Shown: positions 9,596 to 50,836 of the stretch, piece after piece
Layout: every line of letters begins with the position of its first letter
How positions within the stretch are numbered: position 1 is the first letter of the stretch
Assembly (NCBI GenBank): GCA_016214905.1
Contig: JACRMQ010000007.1
Location: 396,408 to 460,407 of the forward strand
DNA from: Ignavibacteriales bacterium
GTDB lineage: Bacteria > Bacteroidota > Ignavibacteria > UBA10030 > SZUA-254
DNA: 64,000 nt
Direction of reading: 5' to 3'
Notes under the pieces: generated by a model
Told to the model about the DNA's origin: nothing
Database searches by the model: none
What the model saw: the letters and a program-made list of their open reading frames with translations, nothing else
Position numbers and translations under genes: made by a program

Positions 9596-10188
9596 AATTG
9601 CTCACTTCCTTGCAATCGATTTACAGCGATGCGAATTCTCCGCCGTGCATAGCAGAGATTTGTTTTTACTGAACCGATTGACATACCAGCCATTTCCGCT
9701 ATTTCCTCAATTGAAAAATCCAGAATATCGCGAAGATGAAAAACAAGATATTCTTTCGGAGGCAGATTTCTTGATTCGGAAATGACATGATCGCAAAGAT
9801 CAGATTTCTCGGCTTCAGAATGGAAATCCCGGCTGTCGGCAACATCGTTATTCCCGAATAAACTTCCCGTGTAACCAAAAATATTTTTCTGCCGTGAATT
9901 CATTTTTATTTTGTCATAGCATAAATTGACAACGATCTTATAGATCCATGTGGTGAATTTAATTTCCTTGCGATATTTTCCAAGATTGTTCCAGACACGT
10001 ATAAATGCTTCCTGTACGACATCTTTTGAGTTCTCTTCGTCATGCAATAACCGGAACGCGACCGCGTATGCATATTGTTTCTGCGAGTCCATGAGCGATG
10101 CGAATGCCGCGATATCTCCGTCCAAGCTTTTCCGGACAAGTTCCGGCAAATCAGGTTTCTGCAGTTCCGATTTCTGTGAATTCCTCAT
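9592..10188 (-). CDS. RNA polymerase ECF-type sigma-70 factor
   Basis: 198 aa. Sigma-70 region 2 (FTTWIYKIVVNLCYD) and region 4 HTH (IEEIAEMAGMSIGSVKTNLCYARRRI). Confidence 0.8.
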   Translation of the reverse strand: MRNSQKSELQKPDLPELVRKSLDGDIAAFASLMDSQKQYAYAVAFRLLHDEENSKDVVQEAFIRVWNNLGKYRKEIKFTTWIYKIVVNLCYDKIKMNSRQKNIFGYTGSLFGNNDVADSRDFHSEAEKSDLCDHVISESRNLPPKEYLVFHLRDILDFSIEEIAEMAGMSIGSVKTNLCYARRRIRIAVNRLQGSEQL

Positions 10189-10488
10189 TGACTCTATTTA
10201 TATTCTTTTATAATGATACGACTGAAAGTTGTTATGGTTAAAAAATATAGTGAAATAAATTGGGAAATATATTGAGTAAAAGTTGGAAATTCCGTGAAAA
10301 CTGGTAGGATAAGCCAGATATGTTTAGTGGGATGGGGAAGATGGAAGTATGTTGTGATTATTTTTGATAACGTTCGGGGCTTTGTAAAGGAAGGCAATTA
10401 ATATCACTTCACTTTCGACCAGTAAAAAGTAAATAAAAAACACAACTGTTCAACTAACCACTGTCCACCCGTTTTTGCTAAGCCCTTG

Positions 10489-11193
10489 TTAGCTGTTACT
10501 ATACTTCTCGTTCGCATTGTCGTCTTCAAGTTTGATGTAATCGTTATCTGTTGAAAGAATTGATCGTGCTACCCAGCTTGGTTTAATGCTGTCGTAAAGA
10601 ATTTTGGAAAAAGTGCCACCGAAAATTAAAACTTCCTTCCCACTCGGAAGGGTTACAACTATTCCTTTATTATTTATCACAACAAAACCTTCTCTAACTG
10701 TTGTCTGTTTTCTTTTGATAGTTTCTTTTTCAGTCAACCACCTTGCTTTTAAGCCAAAGGAATTAAATGTGTCAATCAATGCATCAGCATTTATCCCAAT
10801 TATCACTTTCACTTTTCCAGTAAGAATGTCAATAATAAAGTCAGGGGGAAATGGTTTGCCAAACAATGGTTCCGATAGATTACTTGTTATGGATAGCCAG
10901 TCAATAATGAGGTAGTTCTCTGTTTGTTCTTTGAGTATTTGCTCAATTGCAAAGCCAGCCATTATTAGTTCCTTGTCACGATACATTCCAATGTGAACGC
11001 AAGAGTCAATAACATTGTAAGCCCAGATTTTTTCTTTTAAATCTTCATACAGTTTGCGAAGTTCTTTGTGATAGATTTCTGTTGTTACAATAGGTGTGAA
11101 TACGGTGATATTGCTACCTGAAACGGGGTCAATACCTTTATCATTGTTAATTACATCAACCGCACGGATTGCTCGTTCTTGTTGTCTTTGTAC
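10489..11193 (-). pseudogene. C-terminal continuation of the same frame. 69 open codons after the TGA, then the ATG-initiated 165-aa ORF 10489-10986. Either a pseudogene or a separately initiated CDS.
   Basis: I translated the minus strand from 11193 to 10987 by hand. It gives VQRQQERAIRAVDV...CVHIG with no stop, then runs into MYRDKELIMAGF. Confidence 0.4.
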
Positions 11194-11892
11194 TCACTTA
11201 ATTTGTTTGACCGTTGTCTCGTCAAACTTTTCTTTCAAACTTTCATCAGTTATTGAATCGATTGTTTTGCCAGCTTCTTTAAAGAAGTCAGCGATTAAGT
11301 CGTTAACCTTGCCTTCCTTTAACTCCATAATCCCGAAAACTTTTCCGTGACGAACCAATAAGTCACCAATCTGAACAAAGCTTGTCAAATCAGAAATCAA
11401 AGCAAAGTCACTTGGTGTTTTATTTATTTGTTCGGCAACTTGCATCGCATGTTCAAGGTTGGATGAATCAAGAAACTTTGCTGATTTCTCTTGAATATGA
11501 AATCTACGGGCTATGCAAATCTGTCCTCCGATGAGTTGCCAAACAATTCCATCCGCAATATGAGAGAAGTTATGAAGTCGCTGCTCAATAATCTTAATCT
11601 TGTTTTGTGTTTCCTGTTCTTTGGTTTTGTTTCTTTGTCTGCGAAATTCTTTTAACGCAACATTTGCTTCTCTTAGTAAGGTCTGATATTTTTTGATTTC
11701 CTCAATCAGTAGGTTTTGAGCAATTTTAAATCCATTATTGCAAGCATTGAAGAATTTTGTCTGAACATCTTTGCTCCAAGTTTTAGGTGGACCCTCTTTC
11801 AGTTGCTCAATGCCAACTGCATCCATACCATGCCCGAAAGCATAATCGGCAATTTGTTTAAGCTTTGTTCTATAATCCTCAATAGTGTCCAT
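11194..11892 (-). CDS. Hypothetical protein. N-terminal part of a ~467-codon reading frame that is interrupted by an in-frame TGA.
   Basis: 232 aa with no recognisable motif. Lies in an AT-rich region. Its stop TGA at 11194-11196 is in the same frame as the downstream ORF. Confidence 0.45.
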   Translation of the reverse strand: MDTIEDYRTKLKQIADYAFGHGMDAVGIEQLKEGPPKTWSKDVQTKFFNACNNGFKIAQNLLIEEIKKYQTLLREANVALKEFRRQRNKTKEQETQNKIKIIEQRLHNFSHIADGIVWQLIGGQICIARRFHIQEKSAKFLDSSNLEHAMQVAEQINKTPSDFALISDLTSFVQIGDLLVRHGKVFGIMELKEGKVNDLIADFFKEAGKTIDSITDESLKEKFDETTVKQIK

Positions 11893-12175
11893 CTCATTTT
11901 TGTAATCTGTCAGTTGTTAAATGCTCATAAGATTCAAGCTAACATGGCCGCCCAAGAGTTGCAGCGTATTAAGTGTATTGAATTAATAGGTTATCATACC
12001 AAAAGTCAAAGTTTGTAATAATAGAAGTTAAATTGTGAGAAGGTGTTTCTCGCGGGGGATCTCAAAAAAAGTCCTGTGTCATGCTGAATTTATTTCAGCA
12101 TCTATACAAAGGAGGCCATTTAGCGATGTTCAGATTCCGAAACAAGTTCGGAATGACTCCTTTTCTTGTTTTTAG

Positions 12176-13057
12176 TCAACCAAATACACCATTCCTCATC
12201 GCCGCGATATGATTCGGAGTTGTCCCACAGCATCCGCCGATAATTTTTACACCGACAGTCAGCAACTCCCGACTTTTTTCTGCCATGAACTCGGGTGTCT
12301 CATTGTAAATTAATTCACCGTTCTTCATTACCGGCAGTCCAGCGTTTGATTGAATTATTATCGGAAGATCGGTGTGCTTGCGGAATTCTTGGGCGATCTC
12401 AATCATCCTCTCAATACCATTACCGCAATTTGATCCGATTACATCAACACCGGCTTCCGTAAGTCCATCTACCGCTTGCTTAATCGAGACACCCATAATT
12501 GTATAAAACCCGCGTGGAGTTTTATCAAATGTCATTGTTGCACAAACAGGTATCTCTGAAGAAATTGATCTAACGGCTCTTACGGCAAGAATTGTTTCGT
12601 TTAAATCTGTCATGGTTTCAATGCAAATCAAATCTACACCGTTGCAGATCAATATTTTCAATTGTCGAAGATAAGACTCGAATATCGTAATCGATTTCGT
12701 GTCGCCAAATGGTTCTAAAAGTTTCCCAGATGGTCCGCATGATGCGGAAACATAAGCTTTGTCTTTAACCACTTTTCTTACTGCCTGCACGGCTTTTGAG
12801 TTTATTTCTTCTGTTTTATCGTCGAGGCCGTATGCTGAAAGTTTAAGTGGTGAACCACCGAATGTATTTGTCTGGATTATTTCAGCCCCCGCATCTAAAT
12901 ACAGACGAGCGATATCTTCTAAAACTTCAGGATGGTCAAGGTTCATCAACTCCGGACATTCACCCGGCTTTAATCCACGCTGGAAAAGCATTGTACCCAT
13001 CGCGCCATCGGCGATGATTACTTCTGGTCGCTTTAATCTTTCGACAAAAGATATCAT
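12176..13057 (-). CDS. Homocysteine S-methyltransferase domain protein (PF02574-like; MetH N-terminal-domain homolog), stand-alone
   Basis: 293 aa. Zn-ligand motifs NCG (IGSNCGNG) and GGCCGTTP near the C-terminus. Adjacent to the corrinoid protein gene. Confidence 0.75.
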   Translation of the reverse strand: MISFVERLKRPEVIIADGAMGTMLFQRGLKPGECPELMNLDHPEVLEDIARLYLDAGAEIIQTNTFGGSPLKLSAYGLDDKTEEINSKAVQAVRKVVKDKAYVSASCGPSGKLLEPFGDTKSITIFESYLRQLKILICNGVDLICIETMTDLNETILAVRAVRSISSEIPVCATMTFDKTPRGFYTIMGVSIKQAVDGLTEAGVDVIGSNCGNGIERMIEIAQEFRKHTDLPIIIQSNAGLPVMKNGELIYNETPEFMAEKSRELLTVGVKIIGGCCGTTPNHIAAMRNGVFG

Positions 13058-13172
13058 AATTATTTCTTAATGGTTCGGTGTTAGTTGTTGGTTATTTGTC
13101 ATTAGTTATTGGTCATTAGCTATTAGGCATTAACCATTGACTATTAACATTTGTTTTTCGGATATTATCTTT

Positions 13173-13811
13173 TCATGAATGTCCTAAAATGCGTTTGACG
13201 GATTCCACAGCGCTCATACCGTCGAAGCAATAAGCGTCCGCGCCAATCTCTTTTGCGTATTCAGAAGAAAGCGGCGCTCCGCCGACAATAAATTTTTTCT
13301 TTCCGTAAATCCGCCGTTCTCTTGCAAGATCAATCACCTTTTTCATAACCGGCATCGTTGTGGTGAGGAGTGCAGACATGCCGATTATTTCTGCATTTTC
13401 TTTTTCCGCTGTGTCGAGAAATTTTTCAGGAGAAACATCATTGCCTAAATCAATAACCTCGAAGCCAGCGCCTTTAAGCATAATGGCAACAAGATTTTTA
13501 CCGATGTCGTGCAAATCTCCTTGAACAGTTCCGATAACTACTTTGCCGATAGTTGGAATTCCTTCCTTAAGCATCAATGGTTTCAGCAAATCCATGCCGG
13601 TGTACATTGCTTTTGCCGCAAGTAGGACATCCGGCAGGAAAATCTCGTGCTGTTTGAATTTTTCTCCAACAACAGACATGCCGGCAATGAGTCCTTCATC
13701 GAGAATAGTTTTAGTGTCAATGTTTTCATTGATTGCCTGTTGAGTAAGCTCGGCAACATTCTTCGAGTTACCTTGTTGAAGTTGCTCAGAAAGTTTTTGT
13801 ATGATGTTCAT
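13173..13811 (-). CDS. Corrinoid (cobalamin-binding) protein, MtbC/MtmC/MttC-like
   Basis: 212 aa. B12-binding cap followed by a Rossmann-like B12-binding domain carrying the DxHxxG motif (GDLHDIGKN). Confidence 0.8.
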   Translation of the reverse strand: MNIIQKLSEQLQQGNSKNVAELTQQAINENIDTKTILDEGLIAGMSVVGEKFKQHEIFLPDVLLAAKAMYTGMDLLKPLMLKEGIPTIGKVVIGTVQGDLHDIGKNLVAIMLKGAGFEVIDLGNDVSPEKFLDTAEKENAEIIGMSALLTTTMPVMKKVIDLARERRIYGKKKFIVGGAPLSSEYAKEIGADAYCFDGMSAVESVKRILGHS

Positions 13812-13940
13812 GTTAATTCCAATATGTTCTCTGTTTTAAGTATTGAGTTTTCTAAATCTTGAATATTCCATCCTACATTATTCTTCATCCTATGCTATAC
13901 GCGGACATGCACGAGTTGATAGTAAATGTAATTCTTAATT

Positions 13941-14372
13941 TCATCTCATTATCATCATCTTAGAGAGAGCACTCCTATTGCCAACCTGACATTTTAGCAA
14001 GTAGACACCCGTATTGATATGGAAATCAGTCGCTTTGAATTTGTAGTTTCCAGATAATAGATAACCACTGAAAGCTTCGCAGATAAATTTATGATTTAAT
14101 TCTAAAAAGGAAATCGTTACCGTATTCTCCCGAAACACATGAAAACTTATGTCGGTAGTTGGAGAAAAAGGAGATGAAGAGGATGGAACGATTAACACAG
14201 AATCCTTCAAGGTGACCCCTGATAACGAATCTTGAAGTTTTGTGATATCACCCTTGACATATTGCTCCTCGAAAGGTATTAACGCTTCAGTAGATACAAC
14301 GTTCTTTGAGGAACATCCGTTTAGTAGATTAATGAATATTGCCAAAACTATCCGACTAGTAAGATTATTCAT
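13941..14372 (-). CDS. Small lipoprotein, unknown function, possible T9SS-type C-terminal sorting domain
   Basis: 143 aa. Signal plus lipobox (LLNGCSS). The C-terminal ~60 aa resemble Por/T9SS CTDs (GVYLLKCQVGN). Weak evidence. Confidence 0.35.
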   Translation of the reverse strand: MNNLTSRIVLAIFINLLNGCSSKNVVSTEALIPFEEQYVKGDITKLQDSLSGVTLKDSVLIVPSSSSPFSPTTDISFHVFRENTVTISFLELNHKFICEAFSGYLLSGNYKFKATDFHINTGVYLLKCQVGNRSALSKMMIMR

Positions 14373-14440
14373 AAACTAATTAATCCTAAGATATAAATAT
14401 TATTAAGTGTATGATTGTACATAACATCCATCATCCTTCA

Positions 14441-15157
14441 TCATTCATCCTTCATCGTTATTATTCTCTCCCTACATTCATGTGTTGCACAACTACCGCA
14501 GAATGCGAAAGTATCGTCAAATTGGAAAATCTTTTTCTTACCCGAAATAATAACTCCGCTTATCGACTTCAACGGTTCCATCAAAAAGCTTTCCCTTAGA
14601 CTGATACCTATATCCTCAGGATGAAGAGACTTAAATAATTTTCGTTGACCGCTTACATGCCAGCCGCAATATCCCGGACTGAAGCGAAGAACACCGCTTT
14701 CTGCTTTGAAACGGCCGATATTATTCAGGTGGGATCGGTAGTAATTTTCAATTGATTCGGCGGTCATTTCTGCTGCTTCCGAGGCAACGGCGTCAAGCAT
14801 AGAGCCGAGAGCAAAATCGTTTGTATAAAATAATCGCGATATTTCTGCGCACACTTCATCTTCGATTGTAACAGCAAAAAGAGCCAGATCGTCGGATGCT
14901 TCGAAGATATTTTTTACAGGTGAATCGGTTTCGTTATTTCCTTCTCCCGAGTATACATTTTTGAATTCTTCTTTTGATAATTCTTGTATAACACCAATAG
15001 GAAATGCAAGTTTACTAAAAATTGAGATTGCTTCCTCGGCAAGTTTAACCGTGCGTCCATTCACGTTAATGTGATTCGGAATCCCCTGTCGTTGGAGGAT
15101 TGTATTCACTCGTGGAATAACAGAGTTTACGGGTATGTTGATTATTTTTCGCATCAA
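14441..15157 (-). CDS. Methionine-synthase B12-activation (reactivation) domain protein (Met_synt_B12-like)
   Basis: 238 aa. Resembles stand-alone vitamin-B12-dependent methionine synthase activation-domain proteins. The ATG at 15152-15154 overlaps the MttB stop codon (ATGA-type overlap). Confidence 0.55.
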   Translation of the reverse strand: MMRKIINIPVNSVIPRVNTILQRQGIPNHINVNGRTVKLAEEAISIFSKLAFPIGVIQELSKEEFKNVYSGEGNNETDSPVKNIFEASDDLALFAVTIEDEVCAEISRLFYTNDFALGSMLDAVASEAAEMTAESIENYYRSHLNNIGRFKAESGVLRFSPGYCGWHVSGQRKLFKSLHPEDIGISLRESFLMEPLKSISGVIISGKKKIFQFDDTFAFCGSCATHECRERIITMKDE

Positions 15158-16626
15158 TCTCTTTTTGGCAATTCATTCATTCCAAATTTATGCGCTTCTG
15201 CCGACATTAGTTCTATCAAATCGGATTGAATATTTTCTGCAAGTCGTGTGGGCTGATACGACTTGAGTTGTTTTTCTATTTCACGAGTTGCTCGATCCCA
15301 TTCGGTTAAGCTTCCGTCTTCTTCCCAGCGTGAACGGTTTGCCCTGTTAATTACATTCCCCGGAAGATAATCTTCTCCTTTAAAATATTTTCTCGTATGG
15401 TCGGCAATGAGAAGATGTTTGTCGCGCAGCAATTCTTCGAATATCGGTAGGGAAGGAAAATCTTCCTTCGGTTCAATTCCATTTACTAATCGAAGCATTG
15501 TTCCGCAAATTTCGTTATCGATCACTAATTTTTCCAAACTGATGCAGCTTTCGAAATCGATCATTCCGGGACCGGAGATGTTATTTATACCTGCAAGAGC
15601 AGCAAGTGTTGCGCCGGTTGCAGTTTCAAATCCGGCTTGCACATCAAGCGACTTCGCATCAGTCAATCCGATATAAGCCTGTGTTGGTATGCCAAGATAT
15701 TTTCCAATTTCATTGTAAGCGCAGTCTATCATCATTGTTGCGATTGAACCCATTGGTGTAGTTTCATATCGGACATCGAAGAAAGCCGGTGAGCCGCCGT
15801 ATAAAACCGGTGTTCCCGGATTAAACATCTGACTTATTACAAGTCCGCTCAAAGTTTCCGCAGTGTGCTGGACAAGTGTTCCAACAATTGTCACCGGCGA
15901 CATGAAACCAGAAAGAGGCATCGCAATATATTCTACAGGAATAGAATAAGCGGAACAATCGATCAGGTTTTGCGATGTAACCTTGCTCCACTTCAATGGA
16001 GAAGTTGGACAACATGAAAATACAGTAAGTGGTTTGGCTTTTAGATTTTCTTTGGTGCCGCGGATAGCAAGCTGTAGATTTTTCATAATCTCAAAAGCTT
16101 CAATCGTAAACGCGCCTGTTACAACAGGTTTCTCGCAGTAAAGCAAATTTAGATAAAGGCGATAGCTGTCGGAAATTTTTTCGTGTACATCGGATGGAAT
16201 CATGGCGGTTGATTGGGATGCGATATTTTTCATCTTCGACATCAATTTTGCATAACGGATATAATCGGTAGTGGTTGGCTTCCTGACTGTTCTGGTTGAC
16301 CCGTCAAGATAATAAATTGCCGCCGAGCCGGGCGTGAAGTTCACATTGAAACCAGAAAGATCAACTGATTCGTTGCCAAGAATATCGTATAACTTGAATG
16401 AGTGTGGTGTGGCAGCGATTGCTTTATCGATTAAAGATTGAGTAAAAAATATTTTCTGTGTGTTTTTATCAACTCTCGCTCCGTGATCTGCAAGCAAAGT
16501 GAGTATTCGCTCGTTGTGAATTTCGATCCCGAGCTTACACATTATATCGCGGGCTTCTGAGATAATGCGTTCTTTTAGGTTGTTTTCCAAGAAACTGACA
16601 ACAGGTCTCAAATCTTTTCCTTTCAT
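15154..16626 (-). CDS. MttB-superfamily methyltransferase (non-pyrrolysine trimethylamine / glycine-betaine:corrinoid methyltransferase family)
   Basis: 490 aa. The N-terminus matches the MttB-family consensus (LxxxxLExIhxaslxILeevGvevhneeaLellkeaGarVD), here LENNLKERIISEARDIMCKLGIEIHNERILTLLADHGARVD. Length is typical for the family. No in-frame amber codon. Confidence 0.7.
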   Translation of the reverse strand: MKGKDLRPVVSFLENNLKERIISEARDIMCKLGIEIHNERILTLLADHGARVDKNTQKIFFTQSLIDKAIAATPHSFKLYDILGNESVDLSGFNVNFTPGSAAIYYLDGSTRTVRKPTTTDYIRYAKLMSKMKNIASQSTAMIPSDVHEKISDSYRLYLNLLYCEKPVVTGAFTIEAFEIMKNLQLAIRGTKENLKAKPLTVFSCCPTSPLKWSKVTSQNLIDCSAYSIPVEYIAMPLSGFMSPVTIVGTLVQHTAETLSGLVISQMFNPGTPVLYGGSPAFFDVRYETTPMGSIATMMIDCAYNEIGKYLGIPTQAYIGLTDAKSLDVQAGFETATGATLAALAGINNISGPGMIDFESCISLEKLVIDNEICGTMLRLVNGIEPKEDFPSLPIFEELLRDKHLLIADHTRKYFKGEDYLPGNVINRANRSRWEEDGSLTEWDRATREIEKQLKSYQPTRLAENIQSDLIELMSAEAHKFGMNELPKRD

Positions 16627-48595: not shown

Positions 48596-49462
48596 ATGGA
48601 AAATGCTCTTGAGATAAATAATTTAAGAAAAGATTACGGAGACTTTCGTTTAAAAGATGTTACGTTCTCTCTGCCTGAAGGTTATATCATGGGATTAATC
48701 GGTCCGAACGGTGCGGGTAAAACAACAATCATAAAATTGATAATGAATCTTTTGATAAAGCAGGGTGGCAGCATTCGGGTATTTGGTAAAGATCATATCG
48801 AACATGAAGTAGATATTAAATCCCGGATAGGATTCGTATACGACAATCCGAATTATTATGAACACCTTAATCTTAAACAAGTAAAAAATATCATTCGTCC
48901 CTTCTATAAGAATTGGGATGATAAAGTTTTCATGAATCTTGTTGATAAATTCGAATTACCGTTGAAAAAGAATATCAGGAAATTCTCACGCGGTATGGTT
49001 ATGAAAGCAGCGATCGCAATTGCACTCTCACATCATGCCGACTTTATCATTATGGATGAACCGACCTCAGGATTAGATCCGATATTCAGAAGGGAACTGC
49101 TAGATTTACTTTATGACCTACTTCAGAGCGAGAAGAAATCGATTCTGTTTTCCACACATCTTACATCCGACTTAGAGCGTATAGCTGATTATATTACGTT
49201 CATACTGAATGGAAAAATCATTTTCTCTTCAAGCAAAAATGAAATAATGGAGACTTATGCGGTGATTAAAGGAGGGAACGATCTTCTAAACGAGGAAACA
49301 AAAAAATATTTTAAAGGGATTCGAAAAAATGAATTCGGTTTTGAAGCATTAACAAATAATGTTGAAGAGATAAAAGCGACTTTCGGTTCAGTTATTGTAA
49401 TTGAAAAAGCAACGCTGGAAGATATTATGTACTATAGTAACTTGAAAAATGGAAATTCTTAA
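48596..49462 (+). CDS. ABC transporter ATP-binding protein
   Basis: 288 aa. Walker A GPNGAGKTT and Walker B IIMDEPTSGLD. Degenerate signature motif FSRGMVMK. Confidence 0.8.
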   Translation: MENALEINNLRKDYGDFRLKDVTFSLPEGYIMGLIGPNGAGKTTIIKLIMNLLIKQGGSIRVFGKDHIEHEVDIKSRIGFVYDNPNYYEHLNLKQVKNIIRPFYKNWDDKVFMNLVDKFELPLKKNIRKFSRGMVMKAAIAIALSHHADFIIMDEPTSGLDPIFRRELLDLLYDLLQSEKKSILFSTHLTSDLERIADYITFILNGKIIFSSSKNEIMETYAVIKGGNDLLNEETKKYFKGIRKNEFGFEALTNNVEEIKATFGSVIVIEKATLEDIMYYSNLKNGNS

Positions 49463-50174
49463 TCTTATAAGAAAAGATTTTATTGCCGGAGCGATATTCC
49501 TTTTAGGTGTAGCCATCGTTATCCCTTTTATTGCATCTATTGCAATAGCTGCAATGATAGACGATTTTGGTGGAATCATTATTGGCATATTCACCTTTAT
49601 CGTTACCGCTTTATGTATCAGTGCTTCCTTTATTTTTATAGCGATTGACACTTCATTTGGAACAGAGATGACGTATGCAAGTTTACCCGTTAAACGATCT
49701 TCAATAATCGTTGCCCGATACATGTCATCAATTATTATTACCTTGTCAGGTTTCGGTTTGGTGATTTTAGCATGTCTATCATCGGTATATATTTTCAATC
49801 TATCCGATCCTGCTTTTCGTCTGCTTCTAAGTCCACGTGGTATAACGAGTATGATTTCATTTTTACTTTTTATTTTAACAATCATGCTCCCCTTCGTATT
49901 TAAATTTGGTCCGGGCAAAGGAGTAATAGCCGCACTGATATTGCAAATAAGTCTTGTGATAATCAGCCCGGTTTATAATTTTTTGATGAACGTATTGAAC
50001 GATATCTGGGATTTTGATATTACCTACATTTACAATTTACTTCATAACTTCCTAAACTGGATAATGACTTTGCCCGCTATTTATGCTTATCTCTTTGTAT
50101 TCGGCATCGTGTTGACTTTATATATCATTTCAATATCCTTATCAATTCGATTTTACAACAAGAGAGATTTATAA
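49449..50174 (+). CDS. Integral membrane protein, putative ABC-2-type permease component (paralog 1 of 4)
   Basis: 241 aa, ~6 TM helices. Conserved block SLPVKRSSIIVARYMSS is shared with the three downstream paralogs. Confidence 0.5.
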   Translation: MEILNLIRKDFIAGAIFLLGVAIVIPFIASIAIAAMIDDFGGIIIGIFTFIVTALCISASFIFIAIDTSFGTEMTYASLPVKRSSIIVARYMSSIIITLSGFGLVILACLSSVYIFNLSDPAFRLLLSPRGITSMISFLLFILTIMLPFVFKFGPGKGVIAALILQISLVIISPVYNFLMNVLNDIWDFDITYIYNLLHNFLNWIMTLPAIYAYLFVFGIVLTLYIISISLSIRFYNKRDL

Positions 50175-50179
50175 AAAAC

Positions 50180-50836
50180 ATGATGATATTGCAATTAATA
50201 TTAAAAGATATAAGAGCATATGGTAGCTTAATATTTCTTTGGATTCTTTTACCAATGGCGATTTTAAACTCTCTTTTCAGTTTAAGATTCTATCCTGTCG
50301 GCGGATTTATAATAGCAGGGTGTATGGTAATTGCAGTGGCTTGCTCCATTTTATCATTCTCAGAAAAGAAAAAGAATATTGAAATATTGACTCGTAGCCT
50401 ACCAGTAACAATTAGTGAAATTGTGATAGCTCGATTTTTAACTTCGGTCACCATATCGATCATTGGAATGATTTTCTATTACATAGGTACTTACATAGTC
50501 AACCAAATATATATTAATCCCAAGACTAATTTTGAAAATATCAACAGTCCAAAAGTTTTGTTCATTGCGACGTTTTACTTGTTACTTCATAATGCATTAT
50601 TCATTCCTGTAATGTTGAAATTCCGATTTCTCGGTTCGATATTGGCATTTGTTATAGCAATGTTCGCGACGATATTGATTACCGTCTCAATATTTAAACC
50701 TTACAGGTTGGATTTTAATCCATATTTTGGAACAAATGATTCAATTTTAATTTCAACTCTAACTTTATTTGCCATCTTGATACTGGTTATAGCATTTACG
50801 ATATCTCTGTTTGTCTATAAACGAAAAGAATTTTAG
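50180..50836 (+). CDS. Integral membrane protein, paralog 2 of 4
   Basis: 218 aa. N-terminus MMILQLILKDIRAY. Block SLPVTISEIVIARFLTS. Confidence 0.5.
   Translation: MMILQLILKDIRAYGSLIFLWILLPMAILNSLFSLRFYPVGGFIIAGCMVIAVACSILSFSEKKKNIEILTRSLPVTISEIVIARFLTSVTISIIGMIFYYIGTYIVNQIYINPKTNFENINSPKVLFIATFYLLLHNALFIPVMLKFRFLGSILAFVIAMFATILITVSIFKPYRLDFNPYFGTNDSILISTLTLFAILILVIAFTISLFVYKRKEF

Follow-up and report, generated by a model that had tools for sequence, protein, structure and literature searches.

The minus-strand locus at positions 10489-11892 of the window (the whole 64,000-nucleotide stretch of Ignavibacteriales DNA that was analyzed) is very probably a recent nonsense pseudogene of an ordinary kind, derived from one gene of about 467 codons. 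In the NCBI annotation of this Ignavibacteriales MAG, recovered by exact look-up, the same interval is occupied by two hypothetical proteins, HZB59_08980 (232 aa, MBI5021556.1) and HZB59_08975 (157 aa, beginning at the second ATG). An earlier note on this DNA had described two ORFs (11194-11892 and 10489-10986) lying in one minus-strand frame, separated by a TGA and by 69 open codons and flanked by non-coding DNA. The ORF listing and the translation agree on the shared frame, and the translation of 10489-11892 contains a single internal stop, the TGA at 11194-11196, as its sole interruption. The 69 codons between this TGA and the first ATG of the distal ORF are indeed open, with no ATG, GTG, TTG or stop among codons 234-302, and the non-coding flanks measure 300 nt (10189-10488) and 283 nt (11893-12175). 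The frame is closed 5' of the first ATG of the disrupted gene. The features of the locus are listed in Table 1.

Table 1. Features of the disrupted gene and of the variable unit that carries it (positions in the window)
Feature	Position	Strand	Description	Basis
Whole disrupted gene	10489..11892	minus	467 codons including the internal stop	Translation and full-length homology
N-terminal fragment	11197..11892	minus	Codons 1-232; helical bundle (~1-120) and beta-meander with D168, D177 and E190-x-K192	
Putative PD-(D/E)xK-type active site	11317..11391	minus	Codons 168-192, D168...G176-D177...E190-L-K192, SDLTSFVQIGDLLVRHGKVFGIMELK	
Premature TGA at the invariant Arg233 codon	11194..11196	minus		Homolog alignments
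Open stretch 3' of the stop	10987..11193	minus	69 codons (234-302) without a start; conserved Q237, D251, G253, D255 and Y274	
C-terminal remainder, alpha/beta domain	10489..10986	minus	Codons 303-467 and TAA (165 aa)	
Upstream region, promoter and 5' leader moving with the gene (promoter presumed)	11893..12014	minus		Homology to L046 ends at ~12014
Islet 3' non-coding tail	10374..10488	minus		Synteny on the sigma side ends at ~10371-10373

The joined 467-aa product, with X at the position of the stop, matched more than 150 homologs, nearly all of 446-480 aa, which are uninterrupted and cover both halves of the protein. Coverage of the joined query was 95-100% (>100 homologs), and the best homolog, aligned over 99% of the length, was 88% identical (E 9.5e-267). 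Since homology extends over the full length on both sides of the stop, the joined frame is no chance alignment. The alignments show conservation running unbroken through the 69-codon linker, which holds the invariant Q237. A search of 185,579 species-representative genomes revealed copies with no detected frameshift or truncation at 29 of 34 loci, 3 of these 29 running into a contig end. The view of a single long gene interrupted by a nonsense codon, put forward in the earlier note, is borne out by these comparisons: the homologs are single genes, uninterrupted at the site of the TGA, and are not divided into two separate genes with their own starts.

The TGA aligns with Arg233, a residue that is invariant in 66 close homologs and that does not vary either in 21 sequences of ~25-30% identity drawn from several phyla. 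Among 136 cluster representatives (21-49% identity) only seven columns are invariant, namely D168, D177, E190, K192, G194, R233 and Q237. The disrupted gene keeps six of these seven residues and has TGA in place of R233. Cys, Sec or a stop never occurs at position 233 in the ~200 family members aligned. Judged by its sequence, the locus is a member of this family by descent, and a defective one.

Codon 233 is AGA in the 88%-identical homolog (P0001). An intact 467-aa protein (P0268) falls in the same 90% cluster as the 232-aa fragment, and its contig (L046, run SRR29054605) differs from the window gene at 34 of 1404 nt (97.6% DNA identity) and carries CGG at codon 233. These alleles indicate that the lesion was the change of a seemingly essential Arg sense codon into a nonsense codon, most simply by the path CGG to CGA to TGA. 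With the ancestral Arg233 codon (CGR or AGA) turned into TGA, translation now ends after 232 residues, just past the beta-strands bearing D168/D177/E190-x-K192, and the invariant R233 and Q237 as well as the whole C-terminal alpha/beta domain are lost. Since the 69 codons downstream offer no start codon, the distal part would not be made as a separate protein, and an unexpressed distal part together with the early stop would leave the copy non-functional.

The presence of two gene calls in the NCBI annotation (HZB59_08980, 232 aa; HZB59_08975, 157 aa) and the retention of D168, D177 and ExK in the N-terminal fragment would also fit a naturally split version of the gene, in which a 232-aa N-terminal protein and a separately started C-terminal protein are used together or alone. 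However, the 69 conserved codons after the stop have no start codon, and the first ATG of the distal ORF falls within the conserved CxHIGMYRD motif, indicating that it is not a genuine gene start. No homolog has a two-gene layout at this point, and the other broken copies of the family break elsewhere. A split would moreover forfeit the invariant R233 and Q237 along with 69 conserved residues, and the conserved A117 and H126 are changed within the N-terminal fragment itself. A natural split is therefore considered very improbable.

A sequencing or assembly error, with an Arg codon and an intact gene in the real genome, was another possibility listed in the earlier note. The defect is a change of the single-base type, and the remaining ORF is clean, with neither a frameshift nor a second stop, which speaks for an error. 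On the other hand, Logan contigs from runs SRR12113394 (L008, 5.6 kb), SRR12113396 (L002) and SRR12113397 (L001) match the window at 100% identity through the TGA. These three runs were assembled separately, with a different assembler; they probably come from the MAG's own study and represent independent libraries and assemblies, not independent populations. The nearest intact allele, with CGG, is two substitutions away from TGA, the window lineage has extra non-synonymous changes at conserved sites, and no other broken gene was found across the 64-kb window. The recurrence of the TGA in contigs of three separate runs speaks against a sequencing error, and we regard an error of either kind as very unlikely.

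The remaining alternative is functional recoding, by which the UGA would be decoded as selenocysteine, or passed by programmed or leaky read-through, to give the full-length protein. Of the bacterial stop codons UGA is the leakiest, and the frame 3' of it is still fully open and well conserved in this gene. Read-through might hold a toxic effector at a very low level, and near-cognate decoding of UGA could perhaps even put Arg back. Against recoding, the homologous position is occupied by the invariant Arg, and the protein would probably be inactivated if Trp were inserted there; genes of this genome routinely end in TGA, and constraint is relaxed in the window lineage. No SECIS-like hairpin is formed by the RNA that follows: folding of the 75 nt that begin with the UGA (-8.5 kcal/mol) was no more stable than that of shuffled sequence (z = 0.26), and the scan for SECIS or other RNA families 3' of the UGA gave no Rfam match even at E <= 10. 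None of the aligned homologs has a stop at the same position, the conservation of which is taken as a mark of read-through. Bacterial selenoprotein genes share with the window gene an in-frame UGA in an otherwise open and conserved frame; the window gene differs from them in lacking a SECIS-like structure and in having homologs with Arg rather than Cys or Sec. The suggestion of recoding or read-through in the earlier note is contradicted by the invariant Arg and by the outcome of the SECIS and Rfam searches, and functional recoding appears extremely unlikely, although near-cognate read-through may give some low-level function. Two more specific candidates were rejected: selenocysteine, given the invariant Arg in relatives and the lack of a SECIS-like fold or Rfam match, and an alternative genetic code, given that TGA terminates 17 of the 46 long ORFs in the window (94% coding).

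Among the four possibilities of the earlier note, a recent pseudogene is the one supported, by the hit on an invariant Arg, by the existence of an intact allele at 97.6% identity and by relaxed constraint. With P0001 as outgroup, the derived changes in the window lineage comprise 10 non-synonymous changes plus the nonsense change versus 5 synonymous ones, and those in the intact sister lineage 3 non-synonymous versus 4 synonymous. The 10:5 of the window lineage departs from the long-term window-P0001 ratio of 54:113 (Fisher p = 0.011), and the excess relative to the intact sister lineage alone is not significant (p = 0.38); the counts are small, and N/S ratios are generally inflated on short branches. 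The excess of replacements points to decay after inactivation. Two window-specific changes, A117V and H126C, fall in columns with a conservation of at least 90%, both 5' of the stop, which argues against a truncated protein still under selection. No second disabling lesion, either frameshift or further stop, was found in the disrupted gene, indicating that the inactivation was recent.

The locus shares with ordinary nonsense pseudogenes of the CGA to TGA type a premature stop at a conserved sense codon, an intact, nearly identical allele and an early relaxation of constraint. It differs from them in nothing essential, the window copy being just unusually fresh, with one lesion. If the locus is such a pseudogene, HZB59_08975 and HZB59_08980 should become one flagged pseudogene instead of two hypothetical proteins, and the in-frame TGA would represent decay, not recoding.

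The earlier note had recognized no motif in the protein. This remains true of database matches, none of which was significant, but not of the alignment itself, since an invariant D-D-ExK-R-Q constellation is present. Searches with the window protein and 96 diverse members gave no significant family in Pfam, NCBIfam, PHROGs or PADLOC, and in PADLOC-DB 2.0 neither the window protein nor P0268 nor the E. coli homolog had a match below E 0.06. The PDB-sequence profile search returned one spurious match only, and Foldseek against the PDB nothing at E <= 0.001. The check by remote homology and structure prediction proposed in the earlier note has in this way yielded no significant match and no PDB relative, together with a confident AlphaFold2 model; by these searches, the overall architecture of the predicted fold has no solved structural relative.

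The AlphaFold2 model, built from 66 sequences (pLDDT 85.5, pTM 0.83), has three parts. A long helical bundle (residues ~1-120) is followed by a small beta-meander with strands at 162-166, 178-182 and 185-189 and then by helices, of which that at 225-250 bears Q230, R233 and Q237; the third part is a C-terminal alpha/beta domain (residues ~290-445). In the model strand 2 starts with D177 and strand 3 finishes with E190-x-K192, which would be the arrangement of a PD-(D/E)xK site. The motif region itself has moderate pLDDT (59-80), and, of the alpha-beta-beta-beta-alpha-beta core of that superfamily, the fourth strand lies apart from the rest in the model, with a long helical insert in between.

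The arrangement D168...G176-D177...E190-L-K192 is invariant in the 136 representatives, at identities down to 21%, and the sequence GDLLVxxxxxxGIxELKEG presumably resembles a NERD/Shedu-type core. The family was compared with the PD-(D/E)xK superfamily (Shedu SduA/DUF4263, NERD-like, Hjc, VRR-NUC and CARF- or reverse transcriptase-fused domains). Shared features are the invariant G-D177 at the start of a strand with E190-x-K192 on the next strand 13 residues on, a helix before the meander and another after it, a context of defence islands and mobile elements, and weak model matches. The latter are all sub-threshold (RTasPDDEXK 0.065, CARF_PDDEXK 0.0027, SduA 0.039, DruK 0.067): no known PD-(D/E)xK member showed significant profile or structural similarity, HMM matches being confined to E 0.003-0.07. 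The family differs from the superfamily in this lack of a significant HMM or structural match, in its ~120-residue N-terminal bundle and ~200-residue C-terminal domain, both without recognized relatives, and in the additional invariant R233 and Q237 on the long helix after the core. From the conserved residues and the model, a PD-(D/E)xK-type nuclease or defence function of the intact protein can be proposed tentatively, as a possibility of somewhat less than even likelihood.

The family comprises 931 representatives at 50% identity (E <= 1e-3), 416 of them at E <= 1e-30, among 1.84 billion proteins, with members such as E. coli WP_000982358.1 and Aquirufa VR479_00745. Its distribution is patchy. 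Most members are from Bacteroidota, and others occur in Pseudomonadota, Myxococcota, Cyanobacteria, Bacillota, Acidobacteriota, Chlorobiaceae and Riflebacteria, as well as on enterobacterial and Bacillus plasmids. Homologs occur singly in defence or mobile islands, where their neighbours include integrases, reverse transcriptases, RES, Lamassu, MADS, CAP12-TIR, GmrSD and AbiEii-like ATPases. An all-against-all BLAST of the neighbours revealed no conserved partner gene across 36 loci. The literature, searched by accession and for AbiH-linked systems, yielded no description of the family. Several longer members (P0130, P0136, P0140, P0150 and that at L032 7909-9996) carry an extra N-terminal domain of ~210 aa, for a total of 670-695 aa; this domain had no Pfam or PADLOC match in the ten longer members scanned.

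Of 5426 complete E. coli genomes, 68 carry a distant member (hhalign probability 99.9%, E 2.4e-33), which lies inside a lambdoid prophage and directly downstream of an AbiH gene. The pair was observed in the prophage of E. coli DETEC-E601 (L052 7970-10359, WP_000982358.1) and, with order and orientation kept, on the Enterobacter plasmid pMS-37c (L051 4921-7272, WP_170851394.1). AbiH is a Sir2-like abortive-infection protein that works as a single gene (PMC13064643). The AbiH gene and the homolog may form a two-gene cassette or may simply be two adjacent single-gene defences. Carriage of the family by phages appears rare, with one distant match in IMG/VR and none in INPHARED for the E. coli homolog. 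The family resembles AbiH-like single-gene defence cargo in being a solitary gene with its own promoter, placed in variable hot spots and patchy across phyla, and in having a member adjacent to the AbiH gene, both in E. coli prophages and on the Enterobacter plasmid. It differs in being known from sequence alone and in its absence from PADLOC-DB 2023 and PHROGs. The family is conserved, horizontally mobile and associated with defence islands, and the E. coli prophage copies allow direct laboratory testing.

Besides the window gene, broken copies were found at 5 of the 34 loci (~15%), three frameshifted (L025, L030 and L036) and two truncated (L028 and L044), indicating that loss of function is common in the family. 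Each of the five is disrupted at a different position, and one lies in a complete Flavobacterium genome. The share of broken copies hints that the gene is costly to carry.

The intact protein could act as a stand-alone metal-dependent nuclease effector on invading or host nucleic acid, its gene travelling as solitary cargo on prophages, plasmids and defence or mobile islands. The loss seen in this Ignavibacteriales population would then be one more case of the turnover common among costly accessory or defence genes, and the frequent loss of costly or toxic genes would explain the inactivation. The intact family may constitute an undescribed single-gene anti-phage or anti-plasmid effector, a reading less likely than not. 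Such an effector would be composed of the predicted helical bundle, a divergent PD-(D/E)xK-like core with its R-x3-Q helix and an unassigned alpha/beta domain. Were it true, the window would hold one of the family's frequent inactivation events, fitting a carriage cost.

The gene had been placed by the earlier note in an AT-rich islet that would fit horizontal acquisition. The islet is real in composition, at 36.0% GC versus a window mean of 39.6% (sd 2.1), but the dip is weak, in the 6th percentile of 2-kb windows. The lowest GC of the window is found elsewhere, at ~48800-50500 (32-33% over 2 kb), a stretch far more AT-rich than the islet. For horizontal acquisition, the breaks in synteny and the patchy distribution of the family are better evidence than this dip. 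The contig of the intact allele (L046) aligns to window positions 12014-10199, and its first 191 nt are unrelated to the window. Two contigs of related genomes (L047, 86% nucleotide identity; L048, 79%) share the ECF sigma/anti-sigma block, and their alignments end at 10373 and 10371, respectively, 185 nt upstream of the sigma gene. The ends of homology in these three contigs delimit a variable unit at ~10374-12014 (~1.6 kb) consisting of presumed promoter, gene and short 3' tail and located at a site of variable content 5' of the ECF sigma gene. At the same spot L047 (3517-5748) has a KAP-family NTPase and an unrelated 232-aa protein in place of the pseudogene, indicating that the site is a cargo hot spot; in L047 the corrinoid methyltransferase genes do not adjoin that spot. 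The sequence around the islet was searched for att-like sites and for flanking repeats, direct or inverted, and gave short repeats at chance level only; the promoter and terminator scan gave nothing above shuffled expectation.

Logan contigs of several runs break at exact points flanking the islet. At one flank, 12138 is the last position of L010 and L011 and 12107 the first of L001 and L002; at the other, L001 stops at 10179 and L009 begins at 10208. The contig ends at 12107-12138 and 10179-10208 form overlaps of ~30 nt and are branch points of the assembly graph, and their sequences are not repeated within the window. The branch points beside the islet may represent co-existing strain variants.

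Directly upstream of the islet, on the minus strand at 12176-16626, is a corrinoid-dependent methyl-transfer cluster with a homocysteine S-methyltransferase-family gene, a B12-binding protein, a Met_synt_B12-like protein and an MttB-family gene. The last of these (ORF 15154-16626), an uninterrupted 490-aa MttB-family methyltransferase, contains at 15567-15666 (minus strand) a match to Rfam PYLIS_3, the pyrrolysine insertion sequence of mttB (42.7 bits versus a gathering score of 38). Since the ORF has no in-frame TAG, it encodes a non-pyrrolysine MttB homolog, and the PYLIS_3 match most likely reflects conservation of the coding sequence.
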